A stretch of DNA of 64,000 nt, from positions 1,952,001 to 2,016,000 of the forward strand of contig CAWIKF010000002.1 in NCBI GenBank assembly GCA_963836755.1, given 5' to 3'. The notes under the pieces were generated by a model, which was not told the origin of the DNA, did no database searches, and was given only the letters and a program-made list of their open reading frames with translations. Shown here piece after piece: positions 44,241 to 55,914 of the stretch. Made by a program: the position numbers and the translations under genes. This DNA comes from an uncultured Verrucomicrobiae bacterium. GTDB taxonomy: Bacteria; Verrucomicrobiota; Verrucomicrobiia; Chthoniobacterales; Chthoniobacteraceae. Each line of letters begins with the position of its first letter. Position 1 is the stretch's first letter.

Positions 44241-44513
44241 ATGAAATTCCATGTTCAAGTTCGCGCGGACGTGCCGAACACGTTTGCCAAGAAAAACGGG
44301 GACAAGGTGCAAGAGCGATTGCTCACCTGCATCGACCGCACGCCTGATGCAATGGTGGCCGATACCTTCGAGGTCCTGGCCGCGAATCTCCCGTTCAGCG
44401 AAGCGGGGTCACTCGTCGGCAAAACCGCCGAGCTGCACGTCACGCAGATGACGCCGCGCAATGTCGGTGTCCGGCTTCACGCGAAGGTGTTCGCTAATCC
44501 CGCGAGCAAGTAA
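44241..44513 (+). CDS. Small beta-rich protein, putative ssDNA-binding protein (phage/plasmid type)
   Basis: 90 aa; A-rich leader; TFAKKNGD hairpin-like segment; precedes a Rep-like fragment. Confidence 0.5.
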   Translation: MKFHVQVRADVPNTFAKKNGDKVQERLLTCIDRTPDAMVADTFEVLAANLPFSEAGSLVGKTAELHVTQMTPRNVGVRLHAKVFANPASK

Positions 44514-44533
44514 TCGAAACGCTTTAATCTCAA

Positions 44534-44644
44534 ATGAAACATCCGGAGTCGTGGGCGGTCGGCCAGATACCATGGCAATTCTTCTGCACGTTGACCTGGG
44601 CCAATGAGGGGTCGTTTAAGCGGCCATTCAGCCCGTGCCGCTGA
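44534..44644 (+). pseudogene. Truncated rolling-circle Rep-like N-terminus
   Basis: MKHPESWAVGQIPWQFFCTLTWANEGSFKRPFSPCR*; F-x-TLT resembles HUH Rep motif I. Confidence 0.5.
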
Positions 44645-47348: not shown

Positions 47349-47472
47349 GCCTAACGACCCCAAGCTCAGCGACTGCGGAGGCTGGCGCGCTGGCTGCATG
47401 GGGGCGGAAAGGCGGAGGCTGCAAGCAGCCAGCGTGACAGCCGGAGCAGTTCGCTGCAGCGCATGGTTAGGC
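47349..47472 (-). repeat. Integron attC site (124 bp)
   Basis: GCCTAAC...GCTGCAGC...GCTGAGC...GTTAGGC imperfect palindrome; HNH stop codon lies inside R''. Confidence 0.9.
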
Positions 47473-48324
47473 CATTTGCTCGAATTCATGGAATCGTCGG
47501 TGCCATTGCAGGTATGCACGTGTGGGCTGTGGTAAGTCGGACAGCTTGGCCGCGGATGGGATGCCGATTGCGTTGCGGTCAGCGAGGGAAAAGTGCGGCG
47601 AAAAGATCATCTCGCCGATGTCCGAGAACGAAATAAGTCCGTGCTCGAACGCAAGGTCGATGTGTCCCGCGAGGATTATGCCATTGTTGGCGTCAAGGCG
47701 TTCGGCGGTGCTAGACTGTGACACACGCTTGATGTGGGCCGCACGCAGAAGGCGTCTATCTCGGCAGCCAGTGACGACGCAAGCAGGGCCACACCGATCC
47801 TCGACCCGTTTTCGCCAGTGTTGTTGCCAGAAACGACGCGAGGAAACCGTTCCAAACGTGGTAATGCTATCGTCTGCTTTCTGAATCTCTTCCGGCGTGA
47901 GTTCTTGCCATGAACGATTTGAATCGGTCTCGCTATCCTCCCAAGGCACCAATGTCCCATCCTGTGCTTTGCGGAACAAACATCCAATGACGTCTGCTAG
48001 GAGGGCGTAATGTTCTTTGTTTGGCTGTTTGACGACGCCATTCTTTTCATCAACGAGAATTGGGAAGCGATTCCGTAAGCCGGTTTTCCTGTCTTCGGTC
48101 CATTCTAGTATTCCGGGAGCCGCCTCAGACGGATCGAACTCTGAAGCCAAGCTCCGCCTAGCAAGTGAAGCAGCGTATGTGAGAGATTCGCGAAGGTATT
48201 TGTCGATTCGCGATCGACCATCGCCCTGAAAAGCCCGGAAATGTCGCTGACACTTGCCAACGGGATCGGTCAAATACGCACCTCGGGCTCCCAACTCTTC
48301 GCATACGTCGTGATACGTGCTCAT
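47467..48324 (-). CDS. HNH endonuclease (putative restriction-type), integron cassette
   Basis: CVVTG...LLRAAHIK...DANNGIIL..HIDLAFEHGLISF...YLQWHR; flanked by attC sites. Confidence 0.88.
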   Translation of the reverse strand: MSTYHDVCEELGARGAYLTDPVGKCQRHFRAFQGDGRSRIDKYLRESLTYAASLARRSLASEFDPSEAAPGILEWTEDRKTGLRNRFPILVDEKNGVVKQPNKEHYALLADVIGCLFRKAQDGTLVPWEDSETDSNRSWQELTPEEIQKADDSITTFGTVSSRRFWQQHWRKRVEDRCGPACVVTGCRDRRLLRAAHIKRVSQSSTAERLDANNGIILAGHIDLAFEHGLISFSDIGEMIFSPHFSLADRNAIGIPSAAKLSDLPQPTRAYLQWHRRFHEFEQMA

Positions 48325-48333
48325 CGGTTATTG

Positions 48334-48435
48334 GCCTAACGAATCCAAGCTCAGCGACGGAGGCTGGCGACGCAAGACGAAACCACGAAAGAGACCCCAC
48401 CGCCAGCCTCTGTTCGCTGGAGCGCGTGGTTAGGT
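48334..48435 (-). repeat. Integron attC site (102 bp)
   Basis: ACCTAAC CACGC GCTCCAGC...GAGGCTGGCG/CGCCAGCCTC stem...GCTGAGC TTGGATTC GTTAGGC. Confidence 0.9.
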
Positions 48436-49222: not shown

Positions 49223-50002
49223 TTACGACTTTGCTTCGCCGTGGCGCTTTAGAAATTCATCCGCGAGATCGCGGTAAGCAGTCGCGCCGAGGCCGTTAGG
49301 ATCGTATTCCATGATGGTTTTGCCAAAGCTCGGCGCTTCGCCGAGGCGCACCGTGCGCGGGATCATCGTCTGATAAACGGTTTCGCCAAAATGCTTGCGC
49401 ACTTCGGCGACGACTTGCTGGCTGAGGTTTGTGCGGCTGTCGTGCATGGTCATGACGATGCCGTGAAGAGTGAGGGCGGAATTCGCGCCGGACGCTCGAA
49501 TTTGCTCGATGACTTGCACGATTTTTGAAAGGCCCTCGAGCGCGAAGTATTCGCACTGGAGCGGGACGAGGAGCTCGTCGGCGGCGGCGAGCGCATTGGT
49601 CATGAGGATGCCAAGCGACGGCGGGCAATCGAATAGCACATAGTCAAACGCCGCATCCTCGCGCAGCGGCCAGAGGACTTCGCGCAGCCGCGTGAGGTGA
49701 TGGTCGCCGCGCGCGACTTCGATTTCTGCTCCGGCGAGGTCGAGATCGGCGGGGACGATGGAAAGCGTCTCGAAGCGCGTGGGGAGAATTTGTTTCGCGA
49801 CGGGGCCCTGGTCGACGAGCGGCTTGTAAATGCTGTGCCCGTCCACGCCCTCGACGCCGAGCGCGCTGGTGGCGTTGCCCTGCGGGTCGAGGTCGATGAG
49901 GAGGACGAATTGCCCCTTGAGCGCGAGGCAGGCGGCGAGGTTGACGGCGGTCGTGGTCTTGCCGACGCCTCCTTTTTGATTGGCCACGGCGATGGTTTTC
50001 AT
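49223..50002 (-). CDS. parA: ParA/Soj family ATPase
   Basis: NQKGGVGKTT, DLDPQGNAT, DCPPSLG, LQCEYFALEG. Confidence 0.93.
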   Translation of the reverse strand: MKTIAVANQKGGVGKTTTAVNLAACLALKGQFVLLIDLDPQGNATSALGVEGVDGHSIYKPLVDQGPVAKQILPTRFETLSIVPADLDLAGAEIEVARGDHHLTRLREVLWPLREDAAFDYVLFDCPPSLGILMTNALAAADELLVPLQCEYFALEGLSKIVQVIEQIRASGANSALTLHGIVMTMHDSRTNLSQQVVAEVRKHFGETVYQTMIPRTVRLGEAPSFGKTIMEYDPNGLGATAYRDLADEFLKRHGEAKS

Positions 50003-50048
50003 TTCTGGAAAGTCTGCGAAACTAGTCGTTCGAAAAATATTGTCCAAC

Positions 50049-52920
50049 ATGAGTGGAGTCGAGCTGAGCGAAAAATTGCTGATGGATGCGGGCGGCTGGC
50101 AGGCGATGAAGCTGGCGCGCGCCCTCTGCGACGCCGGCCGCGTGCTGAGCGCGCATTATGCGCCGCCGGTATTGAAGGGCGTGGTGCAGGACGCGGGCGC
50201 GGAGTTTCGCTCGGGGCTCAAAATCGTGACGCGGACGAATGTGGAAAATATCTGCGGCTGCCGCGCGTCGCGCGAATGGGGGACGATCTGCGCGCATTCG
50301 CTGGCGGTGGGATTGAAGGTGTTGCGGCCAAAGTTGGAGAGAGCGGGGGAGCCTACGGTCTCCGCGCCGAAAGCTGCGGCGGTGATGAGCGGGCCGTTTT
50401 TTTCAACGACGGAAGCCGGCGAGCCGATCGCGCTGCACGTGATTTTGTCGCCGAATTTCCAGGCGGCATGGGAGAAGGATCAGGTGATGGTCGGCGCGGA
50501 AGTCGAGCAGGACGGCGGGCGGATTTTGATTCACGCGCTCGATGCGAAGAAAACTTTTCGCGCGGCGCCGGAAGATTTGCGGGTGATCGAAAAACTGCGC
50601 GAACTCAATGGCGGCGCGCTTTCCGGCATGATGATTCTGCCGCGCGAAAAAGTTCTCGAGCTGCTCGAAAGTCTTGCGCGGGCACCCACGCGTGACTTTT
50701 GGAAAAACTGCGCCAGCCGATGTGGAAGCGCTGCTGAAATCGCTGCGGCCAATCAAAGAGGACCCGCGAATTCCAGACCCCCATGTGGACGCGGAACCGG
50801 CTGCGCCGGAATTTTCGCTTACGCTGGAAGGTTCGCTCAATCATCTGACGGGGCGGCTGCAGGCGACTTACGGCCAGCGGGTCGTCACCGTCGGTCTCAC
50901 GCCGGATGCTGACACTTTCACATTTCCCGATCCCAAAAATGCATCGCGCCGCCTTTCGCGAAATCTCGCTGCCGAGCACGCGGCATTGGAGCGGCTCACT
51001 CGCCACGGCTTCGCAGGCCCGGATACGACCGGGAATTTTACGCTCAAGCGCGAACATTCGATCCTGACATTTCTCGCACAGGAGCTGCCGCAATTAGAGC
51101 GGGAGTGGGCAGTTACGATCGGCGCGCGTTTTACAAACGTGACGCGCGACATCGAGCGCATCACGCCGCGCTTCGACATTCAGCGGTCGGGCCAGGATTG
51201 GTTCGAAATGAGCGTGCATTTGGAAGCGCCGGGCGGGCAAACCTTTTCTGCCGCTGACATCCAGCGCCTACTGCAATCGGGGCAAAATCATGTTCGCCTA
51301 AAAAATAATCGGCTGGCCGTTTTTGATGCGAAGATGCTCGATGAATTCCAAAACGTCCTCGTCGATTGCGCGCCGGAACAGCGGCAGCCCGGCCTCTATC
51401 GCGTGAACCGAATCCATGCCGGCTACATCGACGCGGTGATTGGCGATACGCGCGTCACCGGTGCGGCCGAGTGGAAGGAATGGGCGGCGACGCAACGGCA
51501 GATGAAGGCGCCGCAGCCGATCCCGCTCGGCCAGCTCGACGAGGTGCTGCGCCCTTATCAGAAGCAGGGCGTTTACTGGATGAACTTTCTCGCCGAGAAT
51601 GGATCGGGCGGAATCCTCGCCGACGAAATGGGGCTTGGGAAAACTTTGCAAGCGCTTGCTTTTTTGACGACGCGTGGCCGACCGTCGCTGATCGTCTGCC
51701 CATCTTCGCTCGTTTACAATTGGCAGCGAGAGGCGGAACGTTTTACGCCGGAGCTGCGAACTTTGGCGATCGCCGGGGCAAGTCGCAGCGCTCTCTACGG
51801 AAAGATCAACGAGTCAGATCTCGTGATCACAAGCTACCCGCTGCTTCGCCGAGATTCGGACCGCTACAGAACCTTTGAATTTGCGGCCGTTATTTTGGAC
51901 GAAGCACAGCACATCAAAAATCCTGAGACGCAAAACGCGCAAGCTGCCACGAGCCTGCGCGCAGAAACTCGCTTCGTGCTCACGGGCACGCCGATGGAGA
52001 ATTCGGTCCGTGATTTGTGGTCGATCATGCATTTTGTGAGGCCGGGCTATCTCGGCTCGCATGAAGATTTTCGCGAGCGATATGAGAAACCGATTTCCGG
52101 AAGGGATCGAGAAGCCCAAAACCGGCTGGCGAAACGGATCAAGCCATTTTTGTTGCGCAGATTGAAGAAAATGGTTGCCACGGAATTGCCGGACAAGATT
52201 GAGCAAGTTACTTATTGCGAGCTGACTAACGCTCAGTTGGATATCTACAACCAGATCCTGAAGGAGAGCCGTGCCCAAATCGAAGTCGCGAGCGGAGAGA
52301 AGAATGAAGGCCGACTGAAAATGGTGATGCTGACGGCATTATTGCGCCTCAGGCAGGCCTGCTGCGATCTTCGGCTCTTAAAGCTGGCAACAGATCCCGC
52401 CAACTACTCGGCGAAGCTCGAGTTACTCGACGAACTGCTGCGTGAAGCGATCGACGGCGGACATCGGGTCCTGATTTTTAGCCAGTTCGTTACCATGCTC
52501 CAGCTTCTCCGCAAACATCTTGAGAAGAGTGACACTTCATATTGTTACCTCGACGGCTCAACGAAAAACCGCGGTGAAGAGGTGGACCGATTCCAGAACA
52601 ATCCTGAAATTCCCGTTTTTCTGATCAGCCTCAAAGCCGGCGGCGTCGGCCTCAACCTTACGGGCGCCGACACGGTGATTCATTTCGATCCATGGTGGAA
52701 TCCCGCGGTGGAATCGCAGGCTACCGATCGCGCGCACCGACTCGGCCAAAAAAACATCGTGACGTCATTTAAGCTCATCACGAAAGGCACCGTCGAAGAA
52801 AAGATTCTCAATCTGCAGCAAAAGAAGCGAGACATCATAAACTCGACTATGGGCGATGAACTGGAGATGTCGGCGCTATCACCGGCGGAAATTGCATCAC
52901 TACTCGACGTAGAAGATTGA
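50049..52920 (+). pseudogene. SWIM zinc finger + SNF2 helicase split by a +1 frameshift near 50673-50679
   Basis: CGC...ICAH SWIM in frame 1; LADEMGLGKT, DEAQ, TGTP, QATDRAHRLGQ in frame 2. Confidence 0.8.
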
Positions 52921-53486
52921 TCCGCGGAGCGGGCACAGTCATTGAAAGATCGTCATCCAAACGGCACCAACACCCCACTAGTTTATATTACATATAGTCA
53001 AACGATTTATACGAGTTATAGGTAGATAAAGGCTATAAAAAACGTTCGCAAGGTGCTGGAGATAAGAGAGATAAACGACGCGAAAAAAAATCGAAGTTAT
53101 AGGAAAATAAGGCCGGATTAGAAGCCCTTTTAGAAGCACTTTTCGCGCCTCGATTTTCCACGCCGACTTGCTCACAAACCGGTAGCTCTGGCTTGGCGCC
53201 AGCGCGCGAGCTGATCCGCTTCGCGGCTCGCGCTGCCGCTACCTTCGCTCCGCTCGCAGACTCGCTCCGACGATTTGAGAACAAGCCTTCCAACGTGAGA
53301 AAGAAAGGCTCTGGCACGATCGAAAAGAAGAGTGGGAGAGAAGTCCGCGCAGCTGCGCGCGAGAGAGTCAGACCGAGACCCACGGCAGAGCAGGCGAGAG
53401 AGAAAGAGCCAGGACGAAAGATGACCGTCGCAACGAGAGCCAGGACGAAAGAGAAGACGGTCGCGCGGCACGAAAGAAAAGAATGA

Positions 53487-53528
53487 CCCCAGCCCGCCGA
53501 CGGCCTACGGCAACGGGACGGGCTGGGG
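53487..53528. terminator. Strong hairpin inside the element
   Basis: CCCCAGCCCG...CGGGCTGGGG; A-rich on the left (T tract on the minus strand). Confidence 0.55.
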
Positions 53529-53575
53529 AACCTTTAGAACACATTTCACGCACGACGACATGTCACACACCATGC

Positions 53576-53716
53576 TCATGCAGTCCCCGTGTTCTCGGTG
53601 ATTGGACGACCACCCTTGGCACCGTTCGAACGGGCAGAGAGACGCTTTTTGGCTGACTTGGCCTTGCCGCCACGCTTACCGATTTGCCTCAGGTATTCGC
53701 GTGTTGCGGGGTGCAT
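53576..53716 (-). CDS. 46-aa basic KGG-type peptide (absent from ORF track)
   Basis: MHPATREYLRQIGKRGGKAKSAKKRLSARSNGAKGGRPITENTGTA. Confidence 0.6.
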   Translation of the reverse strand: MHPATREYLRQIGKRGGKAKSAKKRLSARSNGAKGGRPITENTGTA

Positions 53717-54026
53717 AAAAGGCGAGTCTGGCCGCTTCGGTTTTCCAACCGACTCAGCTTAAATAGTTTACAAAATGCGAATGCGACGATTTTGGCCAAT
53801 TTTGGGATTTTGCTAAAAGTTCGGTGCAGTTGTTCACATATAGACAAGGAACAGCGTGCGCTATCGCGCTCGCTGGAAACCGCGTAAAAACGCGGGCCGG
53901 AACCCTCTGCGCCGGCCAAAGCTGGCTCCGCGCCGCTCGCCGCTAGCGCGGACTTCGGGACGACGATCGCCAGCGCGAAGCGGCTCCGCAGGGCTCCAAG
54001 GCCACTAGAACGCGGTTTTGCGGAAC

Positions 54027-54356
54027 TCATGACGCTTCGCCGTGACCTTCGAGCCACAGGCGGATAATCTGCCGCAGAAGCACGGACCGAGTCGGCGGGC
54101 AGAACTGGCGACGGCGGAAATCATCCAGCGCACCGGCCTCGGCCTCAGTCAGCGCAGAGGAGACAATGACCGAGACCTTTTCGAGCTGGGGATTGGCCTT
54201 GGGGCCGCGCTTTTGATCAGGCGGATAGCTGAGAACGGGACTGGAGGTGCCGTTAACGTGCTTGCGAGCGGCGTTTTTGGCACGGATATCGGCGCGGATT
54301 TCCTCAAAGAGCTTGCGCTCCGCAGGAGTATGGAGATTGACGCCACGCCGTCTCAT
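54027..54356 (-). CDS. Ribbon-helix-helix (CopG-like) DNA-binding protein
   Basis: KRGPK followed by VSVIVSSALTEAEAGALDDFRR...PTRSVLLRQIIRLWLE; start 54356 or 54392. Confidence 0.6.
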   Translation of the reverse strand: MRRRGVNLHTPAERKLFEEIRADIRAKNAARKHVNGTSSPVLSYPPDQKRGPKANPQLEKVSVIVSSALTEAEAGALDDFRRRQFCPPTRSVLLRQIIRLWLEGHGEAS

Positions 54357-54589
54357 TTGAACAAGACGTTGGTGCCGTATACAAACCGGCAAAGAAAAAC
54401 TTTGCTGATTTGCAGAATGTAGACAATTGGCCCGTGGTTGCTGGCTTGGCGGGCGAGTTGGTGGACGGACATGCCACCAATCTGGATTTTATATTACATA
54501 TATTGTATGATGTTATTGTTATGTGCTAATGGCACCGCGGCTTACCGTTTTGTGAATAACTAGTGAATGAAACCCTGTGCAGGTTCGCG

Positions 54590-55051
54590 CTAGAGTTTCA
54601 TCTCCCACTCCGCGAGCAAATCCAGAAACCCTGTGGAGGTGCTCGCGGTGCGCAATGCGGATTCCGCGGCGCTCTCTTTGAAGATTCGAGCCAAAGCTCC
54701 GATGATGCGCAGATAATCTGCAGCCATCGCGACTGGCACGCCGATCACAAAAATGTAGTGAATGTTGTTCTTCGTATTCGGGAATGCGATTCCACGCACC
54801 GATCGGCCGACACTAACGACCATGCTCGTTACAAAATTGGTGCGGGCATGCGGGATGCAAATCTCAAACTCGTCGCCGGCAGCGACGCATGGATTCTTGC
54901 TCTTCAGGCTGTTGTAAAATGCGTTCCAGTCACGCACGCGTTCATCTTCTTTTAAAAGCGAGGCGACTTTGAAAATCGCCTCCTCCTGATTCGTCTCCTT
55001 CAAATCGATATCGATGTGCCGGGGCTGAAGAATGCTGGAAATCGTGATCAT
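54590..55051 (-). CDS. PTS EIIA (Ntr/fructose-type) domain protein
   Basis: ICIPHAR phospho-His motif; YLRIIGALARI. Confidence 0.85.
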   Translation of the reverse strand: MITISSILQPRHIDIDLKETNQEEAIFKVASLLKEDERVRDWNAFYNSLKSKNPCVAAGDEFEICIPHARTNFVTSMVVSVGRSVRGIAFPNTKNNIHYIFVIGVPVAMAADYLRIIGALARIFKESAAESALRTASTSTGFLDLLAEWEMKL

Positions 55052-55914
55052 ATGGCAGTGCCGCTCCACTTCAGTTTCTGCCGGAGCACTTCGGAAAAAG
55101 TGAGATCCGGTAGCATGGCGAGCGGCAGCGTATGCTTTGCTTTGGTGATCCGGATGATGTCGCCGCCTTTTATTTTGAGCAGCTCCTGACCATCGACGGT
55201 CAAAAAAACATCCTGCTGTCCGGTGCATGGACGAACGGAAATCCGCGATTGGTCGCTGACGATGACCGAGCGGTTTGTCAGCACATGAGGGCAGATCGGT
55301 GTGATGACAAATACGCCGCAGTCCGGCATCAAGATCGGTCCGCCTGCTGACAAAGAATAAGCTGTGGAGCCGGTCGGCGTGGAAATCACCAATCCATCGG
55401 CGTTGTATTCGGTAAGCACATTTCCGTCGATCCGCGTTTCGAGCCGGATCAAGCGCGACATCTCGCCGCGGCTGATGACAGCGTCATTCAATCCAATGCG
55501 CCGGCCTGTAATGCGGCCACCGCTTTCGATCTCCACTTCGAGCAATGTCCGCTGGCTCAGGATGAAATTTCCCGCGACGATGCAGTCGACCGCGAGCGCG
55601 TGCGAGGAGGAGCTGACGCAGGTCAAAAATCCCAGCGAGCCGAGATTGATGCCGAAGATCGGTTTCAGCCTCTCGCCCAAATCATGAAGCACTTGCAAAA
55701 TCGTCCCGTCCCCGCCCAGCACGACAAGAATTTCGCACGCTGCACCGAGATCATGCGAGGAGCCGGCAGATTTCTCGCCGATCAATTCCGCCGTTTTCGT
55801 TTCGAAAAAAATCGTTGCGTTGTGGCGATGAAATTCGGCCTGCAACTTTTTCACCAACTCCGCTGCACCCGGCTTCCCCGCATGCGCGATGATCCCAATC
55901 AATGGCGCAGACAT
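55048..55914 (-). CDS. nadK: NAD kinase
   Basis: GGDGT, GINLGSLGFL, LND, STPTGSTAYSLSAGGP. Confidence 0.96.
   Translation of the reverse strand: MSAPLIGIIAHAGKPGAAELVKKLQAEFHRHNATIFFETKTAELIGEKSAGSSHDLGAACEILVVLGGDGTILQVLHDLGERLKPIFGINLGSLGFLTCVSSSSHALAVDCIVAGNFILSQRTLLEVEIESGGRITGRRIGLNDAVISRGEMSRLIRLETRIDGNVLTEYNADGLVISTPTGSTAYSLSAGGPILMPDCGVFVITPICPHVLTNRSVIVSDQSRISVRPCTGQQDVFLTVDGQELLKIKGGDIIRITKAKHTLPLAMLPDLTFSEVLRQKLKWSGTAI

Follow-up and report, generated by a model that had tools for sequence, protein, structure and literature searches.

A 1,506-bp Rep-less insert between dif-like sites in a Chthoniobacteraceae genome, a candidate non-autonomous Xer-integrated element

We found a 1,506-bp insert between two dif-like sites in the genome of an uncultured Verrucomicrobiae bacterium, and it is very probably a mobile element that was integrated at dif by Xer recombination. 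It lies within a 64,000-nt stretch of one contig (hereafter the window), to which plain positions refer; positions prefixed C2 are contig coordinates, and the genome assembly comprises 3.18 Mb and is 96% complete. The reading that we favour, with moderate confidence, is a non-autonomous IMEX, i.e., a half-site circle that is integrated by host XerCD, copied by the Rep of a sibling, and spread by filamentous phage.

The initial annotation had noticed a 15-mer at 52982 and 54488 and taken it as the mark of dif-like sites around a minimal satellite element. The B. subtilis dif sequence that it quoted is found in the portion of PMC3025954 available to us, and the match of 21/28 is right by hand count. 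The repeat exceeds chance: the window holds two matches at up to three mismatches against 0.07 expected, none of 100 shuffles reaches two, and the whole 3.18-Mb genome has no other match at up to two mismatches, so the 15-mer is not a multi-copy regulator site. On the minus strand, the repeats belong to two 28-bp sites that have the annotated 11-6-11 layout and are spaced by 1,506 bp (Table 1).

Table 1. Coordinates of the insert, its attachment sites, and neighbouring features in the window
Feature	Position	Strand	Basis or remark
Rolling-circle element remnant, 8.5 kb from dif	44241-44641	+	90-aa gene, then Rep stub
SNF2 helicase gene, host flank outside the element	50674..52920	+	Pfam; adjoins the single site in G002
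attR, half-erased dif	52980..53007	-	3/11, 6/6, and 9/11 consensus matches
attR, host XerD-like arm	52980-52990	-
attR, overlap identical to that of attL		-
attR, element-derived junk left arm	52997-53007	-
135-nt four-helix single-strand structure, candidate sso/ssi	53160..53295	-	Covariation; family matches
17-nt perfect direct repeat, pyrimidine-rich tract	53405..53452		Repeat search
Strong hairpin, then T-rich run, terminator-like, after ORF B	53487..53528	-	Fold z -4.9
ORF B, 46-aa basic peptide, KRGG...GGRP	53576..53716	-	48% identity over 27 aa to an ORF of dif element L043
Hairpin-rich tract ending in hairpin and CTTG (53831-53875), weak candidate dso	53831..54030	-	Fold; position
ORF A, 109 aa, candidate C-terminal ribbon-helix-helix-like domain, family marker	54027..54356	-	Homologs; structure model
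attL, intact dif	54486..54513	-	10/11, 6/6, and 10/11 consensus matches; outer host flank conserved in relatives
attL, element-derived XerD-like arm	54486-54496	-
attL, 6-bp overlap	54497-54502	-
attL, host XerC-like arm	54503-54513	-
PTS EIIA gene, host flank outside the element	54590..55054	-	Pfam; adjoins the single site in G002

The insertion site and the replication terminus

The congener G002 has one empty site between the same SNF2 and PTS EIIA genes, and the interval is missing there, so it is not a stretch that relatives conserve. KOPS, for which we assume the pattern GGGNAGGG, switch polarity across the site, with 67 on the plus and 26 on the minus strand to its left and 2 and 16, respectively, to its right (Fisher p 2e-6); the element lies inside the 14-kb gap between the last plus KOPS (C2:1,995,977) and the first minus KOPS (C2:2,010,417). 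The cumulative GC-skew maximum is at C2:1,972k, 32 kb from the site at C2:2,005k, and the skew is weak overall. The dnaA gene (C2:347k) is separated from the site by about 52% of the assembled length, and both an rRNA operon near C2:77k (minus) and the L2 gene at C2:957k (plus) are consistent with an origin between them. The host has an FtsK gene and XerD- and XerC-like proteins that match TIGR02225 (328.7 bits, cutoff 329.6) and TIGR02224 (311 bits, cutoff 335) just below the cutoffs. A pattern of overlap plus right arm matches 101 of the 151 family genomes, mostly as a single copy, against about 30 for the reversed control (hand count). The KOPS switch, the skew peak, the position of dnaA half a genome away, and the empty congener site together support the identification of the site as the dif of this host.

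The initial annotation had itself cautioned against a terminus, given a nearby parA gene (49223-50050, 3 kb from the site) and a nusA-infB operon that is directed away from it. These observations would suit a reading in which the 15-mer serves an origin or a regulator and nothing but ordinary intergenic sequence lies between its copies, as would the weak skew, a surplus of plus-strand long ORFs right of the site (77 plus, 41 minus) that is opposite to the expected strand bias (by a crude ORF caller), and short words, which we take to be DnaA boxes, that are conserved throughout the order at 30-60 bp from the XerC arm of dif, on its outer side. Such DnaA-box-like words stand at 54544-54570 here and also in L016, L028, L029, L034, and L131. 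We regard this reading as very improbable and already largely refuted: KOPS converge at the site, which is usually single-copy per genome and is empty in the congener, and no DnaA-box cluster at the site is among the top five windows of C2. An origin of replication at this position was dropped on the same KOPS evidence and on the positions of dnaA, rRNA, and L2, which point to an origin elsewhere; the caveat of the initial annotation is thereby largely answered.

Compared with a consensus built from 45 sites, one of the two copies is an intact dif and the other has lost one arm. The host motif that is found after single sites in relatives also stands after the 52980..53007 copy. Since the host flanks adjoin the outer arms, the overlap, the good right arm, and the junk left arm were apparently brought by the element. 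The annotated attL/attR layout with a shared spacer and XerD-like arm is thus upheld and can be sharpened: the second XerC arm is erased rather than different. We name the right arm the XerD arm, because it resembles the XerD motif TTATGTTAAAW reported in the accessible part of bioRxiv 10.64898/2026.06.12.731946; the kept arm agrees with it at 8 of 11 positions here and at 10 of 11 in G110, and the assignment is inferred from this likeness.

The left arm is likewise erased in 29 of 74 distinct sites, of which some may be chance and several come from one genome, and the pattern used finds sites with a good right arm only; the sequence shared at the erased arm is a final C in 18. A displaced XerC arm was looked for in this element and is absent, and its junction shows no folded ssDNA attP of the CTX type, which is made from two inverted sites (fold z -0.95 and -0.31). 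The junction folds better in four of nine siblings (z -2.2 to -4.5). Six siblings (L042, L037, L038, L089, L065, and L085) have an 18-bp palindrome 30-65 bp inside the element, near attL, which is a candidate ORF A operator or accessory site and has no match in this genome at one mismatch. In G110, the 1,230-bp dif element has an inverted XerC arm 7 bp past its XerD arm (L131:8479-8524).

Under the favoured reading of a non-autonomous IMEX, a 1,506-bp circle with a half-site attP (overlap and XerD-like arm, no XerC arm) would recombine into dif, presumably by the catalysis of host XerC and XerD, with XerD probably binding firmly and XerC kept in place by cooperation. Integration would regenerate an intact dif on the XerC side and leave a crippled copy at the far end. 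The next element could then enter at the intact dif, to which tandem units in G093 point. As attR is crippled, excision should be rare.

Genes and single-strand structures of the insert

The insert ORFs have no integrase and no Rep by Pfam, PHROG, or Rep profile, as the initial annotation had stated; it did not list two small genes, ORF A and ORF B, or the two non-coding features that are conserved. Further long frames of 97-166 aa were discarded for want of family support. An Rfam search of the insert gave two matches, both at chance level, and the terminator-like hairpin after ORF B was missed by the terminator scan.

ORF A has 38 homologs (42 at the 50%-cluster level), and neither it nor these have a meaningful Pfam match. 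Named records with ORF A are labelled Chthoniobacter or Chthoniobacterales, and the gene occurs in 6 of the 151 family genomes, always adjoining a dif-type site; of three genome-collection matches, two duplicate other loci of the set and were counted once. The structure model (pLDDT 83) has structural matches (VIA) of which the top ones are nearly all RHH proteins, the best at a middling Z of 5.3 (rmsd 2.3, 44 aligned), and one Atlas RHH_7 cluster is found at 0.91; Foldseek with the same model returned no match, and IMG/VR holds no relatives. ORF A is a likely repressor, and it may act on its own promoter and possibly on the rep gene of a helper. The longest contig measures 1.1-1.7 kb for 22 of the 37 non-self homologs (median 1,502), which is a hint only, because metagenome contigs are short anyway. 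ORF B probably binds DNA; its Atlas neighbours are unnamed proteins of 38-54 aa at 0.92, and a search among shorter proteins from the ORF B-like protein of L043 found no homologs.

The 135-nt structure matches 31 of the 151 family genomes at E<=0.001, and 22 of 31 examined loci, this element among them, score strongly with its profile. Across 21 copies, the helices are 97.5% paired and 12 of the 33 pairs are compensatory, which exceeds 500/500 shuffles and all slid controls, although kinship can inflate such values. The fold of the single sequence is no better than that of shuffles (z -0.03 and -1.42), and the tract has no Rfam match. Wobble cells (38 G-U vs 2 A-C, hand count) favour the coding strand for the fold, and G-U pairing does not separate RNA from ssDNA. 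The motif occurs in the same orientation in three other dif elements, L042 and L038, which were part of the training set, and L131, which was not. It has no exact match in IMG/VR and no real match in phage or plasmid collections; the dif pattern has 35 IMG/VR matches, of which those with GC above 42%, 11 in number, come down to two recurring contexts that lack the family XerC arm.

A Rep-profile match lies on the same strand within 0.7 kb 3' in six 135-nt loci (two are part of the profile and one is a fragment), and in one locus the motif is downstream of Rep; no Rep lies within 1.5 kb in 15 of the 21 non-self loci. Among 11 wider loci, one adjoins TrwC and one a DnaB-like gene. In the former (L134, G055:C48), the motif directly follows the TrwC relaxase-helicase gene, and in the latter (L133, G055:C56), it stands between the DnaB-like gene and an AbiE pair. 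Because it is common to Rep and relaxase elements, the structure is less suggestive of a nick site than of a single-strand origin, at which the displaced strand could be converted.

A candidate nick origin is placed elsewhere. Six siblings have a hairpin followed by a CTTG motif after ORF A, directly 5' of Rep where a Rep exists, and at the corresponding place this element shows a less strict form, for which a post-hoc pattern expects 0.036 per element. The tract at 53850-54030 folds with z -2.6, and L043 shares with this element a 21-nt version of the hairpin-CTTG that is unique in this genome. A leave-one-out matrix scored the candidate of this element at chance level (2.4 bits, 5.8 equal sites expected per element).

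Related elements at dif and the source of the Rep

We sampled 151 genomes of the family and took element sizes from fetched multi-site loci (20 regions, then more). Elements without a Rep match and with both ends visible measure 585, 1,161, 1,230, 1,376, 1,380, 1,506, and 2,502 bp, those of 1,161, 1,230, 1,376, 1,380, and 1,506 bp belonging to the set L039, L131, L037, L042, and L089, and there are larger cargo-loaded ones too. One of two metagenome matches (L086) is a contig of 1,354 bp whose ends repeat 127 bp, which makes it a circle of 1,227 bp, although a collapsed tandem array would look identical; it lacks Rep and contains a single half-site, ORF A, and a Cys-rich ORF. The other (L085) is part of a chromosome and includes dif, ORF A, and Rep. 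The HUH Rep directly follows ORF A in L085 and L065, and the small Cys-rich ORF takes the slot of the siblings' Rep in L042, L037, L086, and L089.

Rep genes adjoining dif-type sites (L026, L050, L065, L085, and L036) have HUH and YxxK motifs in common, and four of the five match PF23343, two of them above the cutoff. The Rep profile matches 36 of the 151 genomes. Zot occurs in three of the 151, each time adjoining a dif-type site, and G089 (62% complete) has the end of a Zot-bearing prophage together with a Rep-less element. An apparently whole 9.7-kb filamentous prophage with Rep, Zot, and coat-like genes is located at dif in L036 (G087:C63) and is followed by two more half-sites. Under the favoured reading, an inovirus-type HUH Rep (PF23343) that a sibling element or a filamentous phage supplies would act in trans to start rolling-circle copying of the insert, and spread would go through packaging by filamentous phage.

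Further arrangements were seen across the sample. In G020, an ORF A-bearing dif element of 3.8 kb includes a gene for a SIR2-like and TPR protein (L031:1528-3159), likely anti-phage cargo. In another family of the order (G028), tandem units of 777 and 732 bp stand at dif (L030:5399-6908), each with a displaced XerC arm copy about 40 bp before the half-site. G095 has seven dif-like sites on five contigs (L041, L054, and L040), several of them away from the main dif, which suggests pdif-like modules. A 4.3-kb tRNA-integrated element (L017:900-5200, G006) has tyrosine integrase-like, HNH-like, Rep, and SSB-like genes and the 135-nt motif, and similar elements with integrase and Rep are found in L019 and L128.

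In the genome studied here, there is no Zot and no PF23343 match, and the insert has no pI or coat genes. The sole Rep trace in the genome is a stub of about 35 codons (44528-44641); the 90-aa gene before it, which from its size and position may encode a gene V-like SSB, is 35% identical to the gene preceding Rep in L017. Three soil-metagenome contig sets, of a depth too low to decide the matter, contain no joint; one (X1) has pieces identical to the element, including 53185-53461, and another (X2) has three 151-nt variant pieces with 2, 7, and 18 differences. With no helper in the genome and no excision joint in these three low-depth sets, this copy may be stranded. The initial satellite reading gains from the family, namely from the circular Rep-less member, the Rep-encoding siblings, and the filamentous prophages at the same site, and is for this copy still a proposal. 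Elsewhere in the window, attC-like palindromes (CCTAAC...GTTAGG) at 47349-47473 and 48335-48435 flank an HNH gene and a short fragment that we read as Mrr-like, and an integron integrase-like gene is located at C2:765k; the arrangement looks like an integrase-less cassette cluster.

The absence of a helper, together with the weak nick-origin match of this copy, would also be expected of a stranded deletion derivative, in which a Rep-encoding IMEX, formerly autonomous, was deprived of rep while integrated and now persists only because the crippled attR keeps it from excising. The order of ORF A and Rep in L085 and L065 and the decayed Rep module 8.5 kb away fit such a history, which we nevertheless hold to be unlikely: Rep-less members of similar size exist in several genera, four of them have the Cys-rich ORF in the Rep slot in common, one is circular, and the insert has intact ORF A and all four helices and no Rep remnant.

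We give still less weight to a non-replicating Xer cassette that would excise and reinsert as a dsDNA circle and be moved passively, by co-excision with a neighbouring IMEX or by transformation, like pdif modules, its structured tract being a regulatory RNA or relic. Cargo-only units without ORF A do exist at dif (the 585-bp L040 and the tandem units of L030), larger versions carry defence-like or toxin-antitoxin-like cargo (the SIR2-TPR gene of L031; L038), and the G-U pairing fits RNA as well as ssDNA. Against this, the 135-nt motif is linked to HUH Rep and TrwC elements, and the hairpin-CTTG motif that precedes Rep is retained in Rep-less members. A non-autonomous IMEX remains the reading that we prefer.

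Comparison with known Xer-dependent elements

The comparisons below draw on excerpts of the published accounts. The RS1 satellite of CTX-phi is also a helper-dependent, dif-integrated filamentous-phage satellite; it shares about 3 kb with CTX and uses a folded attP of the CTX type, for which the junction of our element has no counterpart. RS1 carries replication genes. VGJ-type IMEX have an overlap that is non-homologous to dif on the XerD side, whereas the overlap of this element is identical to dif (6/6).

The closest likeness is to the TLC-phi satellite of Vibrio cholerae, which, as far as the available parts of PMC6744903 and PMC5357621 go, is similarly small, lacks integrase and capsid, sits at dif, and has a dif-identical overlap, one degenerate arm, a rolling-circle context, and a small repressor gene. 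TLC keeps the XerC arm and has a degenerate XerD arm, and our element is its mirror image, with 3/11 matches in the left (XerC) arm and 10/11 in the right (XerD-like) arm. TLC also encodes an HUH Rep (Cri) and the activator XafT (DUF3653), and this element encodes neither; no Pfam match to DUF3653 was found in the insert ORFs or the 38 ORF A homologs, and an unrelated activator is possible.

The gonococcal genetic island (difGGI) and Legionella LME-1 have, like this element, a crippled downstream dif copy, which in those systems stabilises the integrated state. In the excerpts consulted, neither is described as a minimal Rep-less element: GGI comprises 57 kb and has its degeneracy, as does TLC, in the XerD arm (PMC5357621, PMC6744903), and LME-1 relies on XerL as its only recombinase, its att being 22 bp long with three changes. 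The crippled copy lowers LME-1 excision (PMC9765430, in part), and by analogy a similar effect is likely here. Enterogokushovirus prophages at dif are also integrase-less ssDNA elements with an intact upstream and a variable downstream dif, but they are full phages with capsid genes, vary in the spacer and XerD arm, and required both arms for integration (PMC7062461, in part). The non-coding circles and satellite plasmids circ-1 and circ-2 are likewise small, without replication genes, and dependent on others, but are not described as Xer-integrated at dif in the text of PMC8530359 available to us.

Published IMEX types number three in the sources at hand, and where one arm is degenerate, it is the XerD arm. 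A literature search that covered few subscription journals found neither an IMEX in Verrucomicrobia nor one without Rep, and no attP that lacks the XerC arm, though the dif sites predicted in PMC3025954, of which a part was available, may include this group. We tentatively raise the possibility, which for now we doubt more than we believe, that a half-site attP, made of overlap and XerD arm only, defines one more class of IMEX integration. Its users in Chthoniobacterales would be filamentous phages, mini-elements that encode Rep, and a family of Rep-less circles of 1.2-1.5 kb that live off the other two. If so, the Rep-less circles would be among the smallest actively mobile Xer elements and would depend on the recombinases of the host and on a Rep and a capsid borrowed from others, and the shared 135-nt structure would be an undescribed family of single-strand origins. 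A site that recombines without an XerC arm would probe what Xer synapsis needs and could reveal a new activator. For a group that is poor in genetic tools, these elements provide a 28-bp landing pad and a compact origin. They fix the position of dif for this verrucomicrobial family, and at this one site they present a full ladder of phage, Rep-encoding element, Rep-less circle, and cargo-loaded versions such as that with the SIR2-TPR gene.
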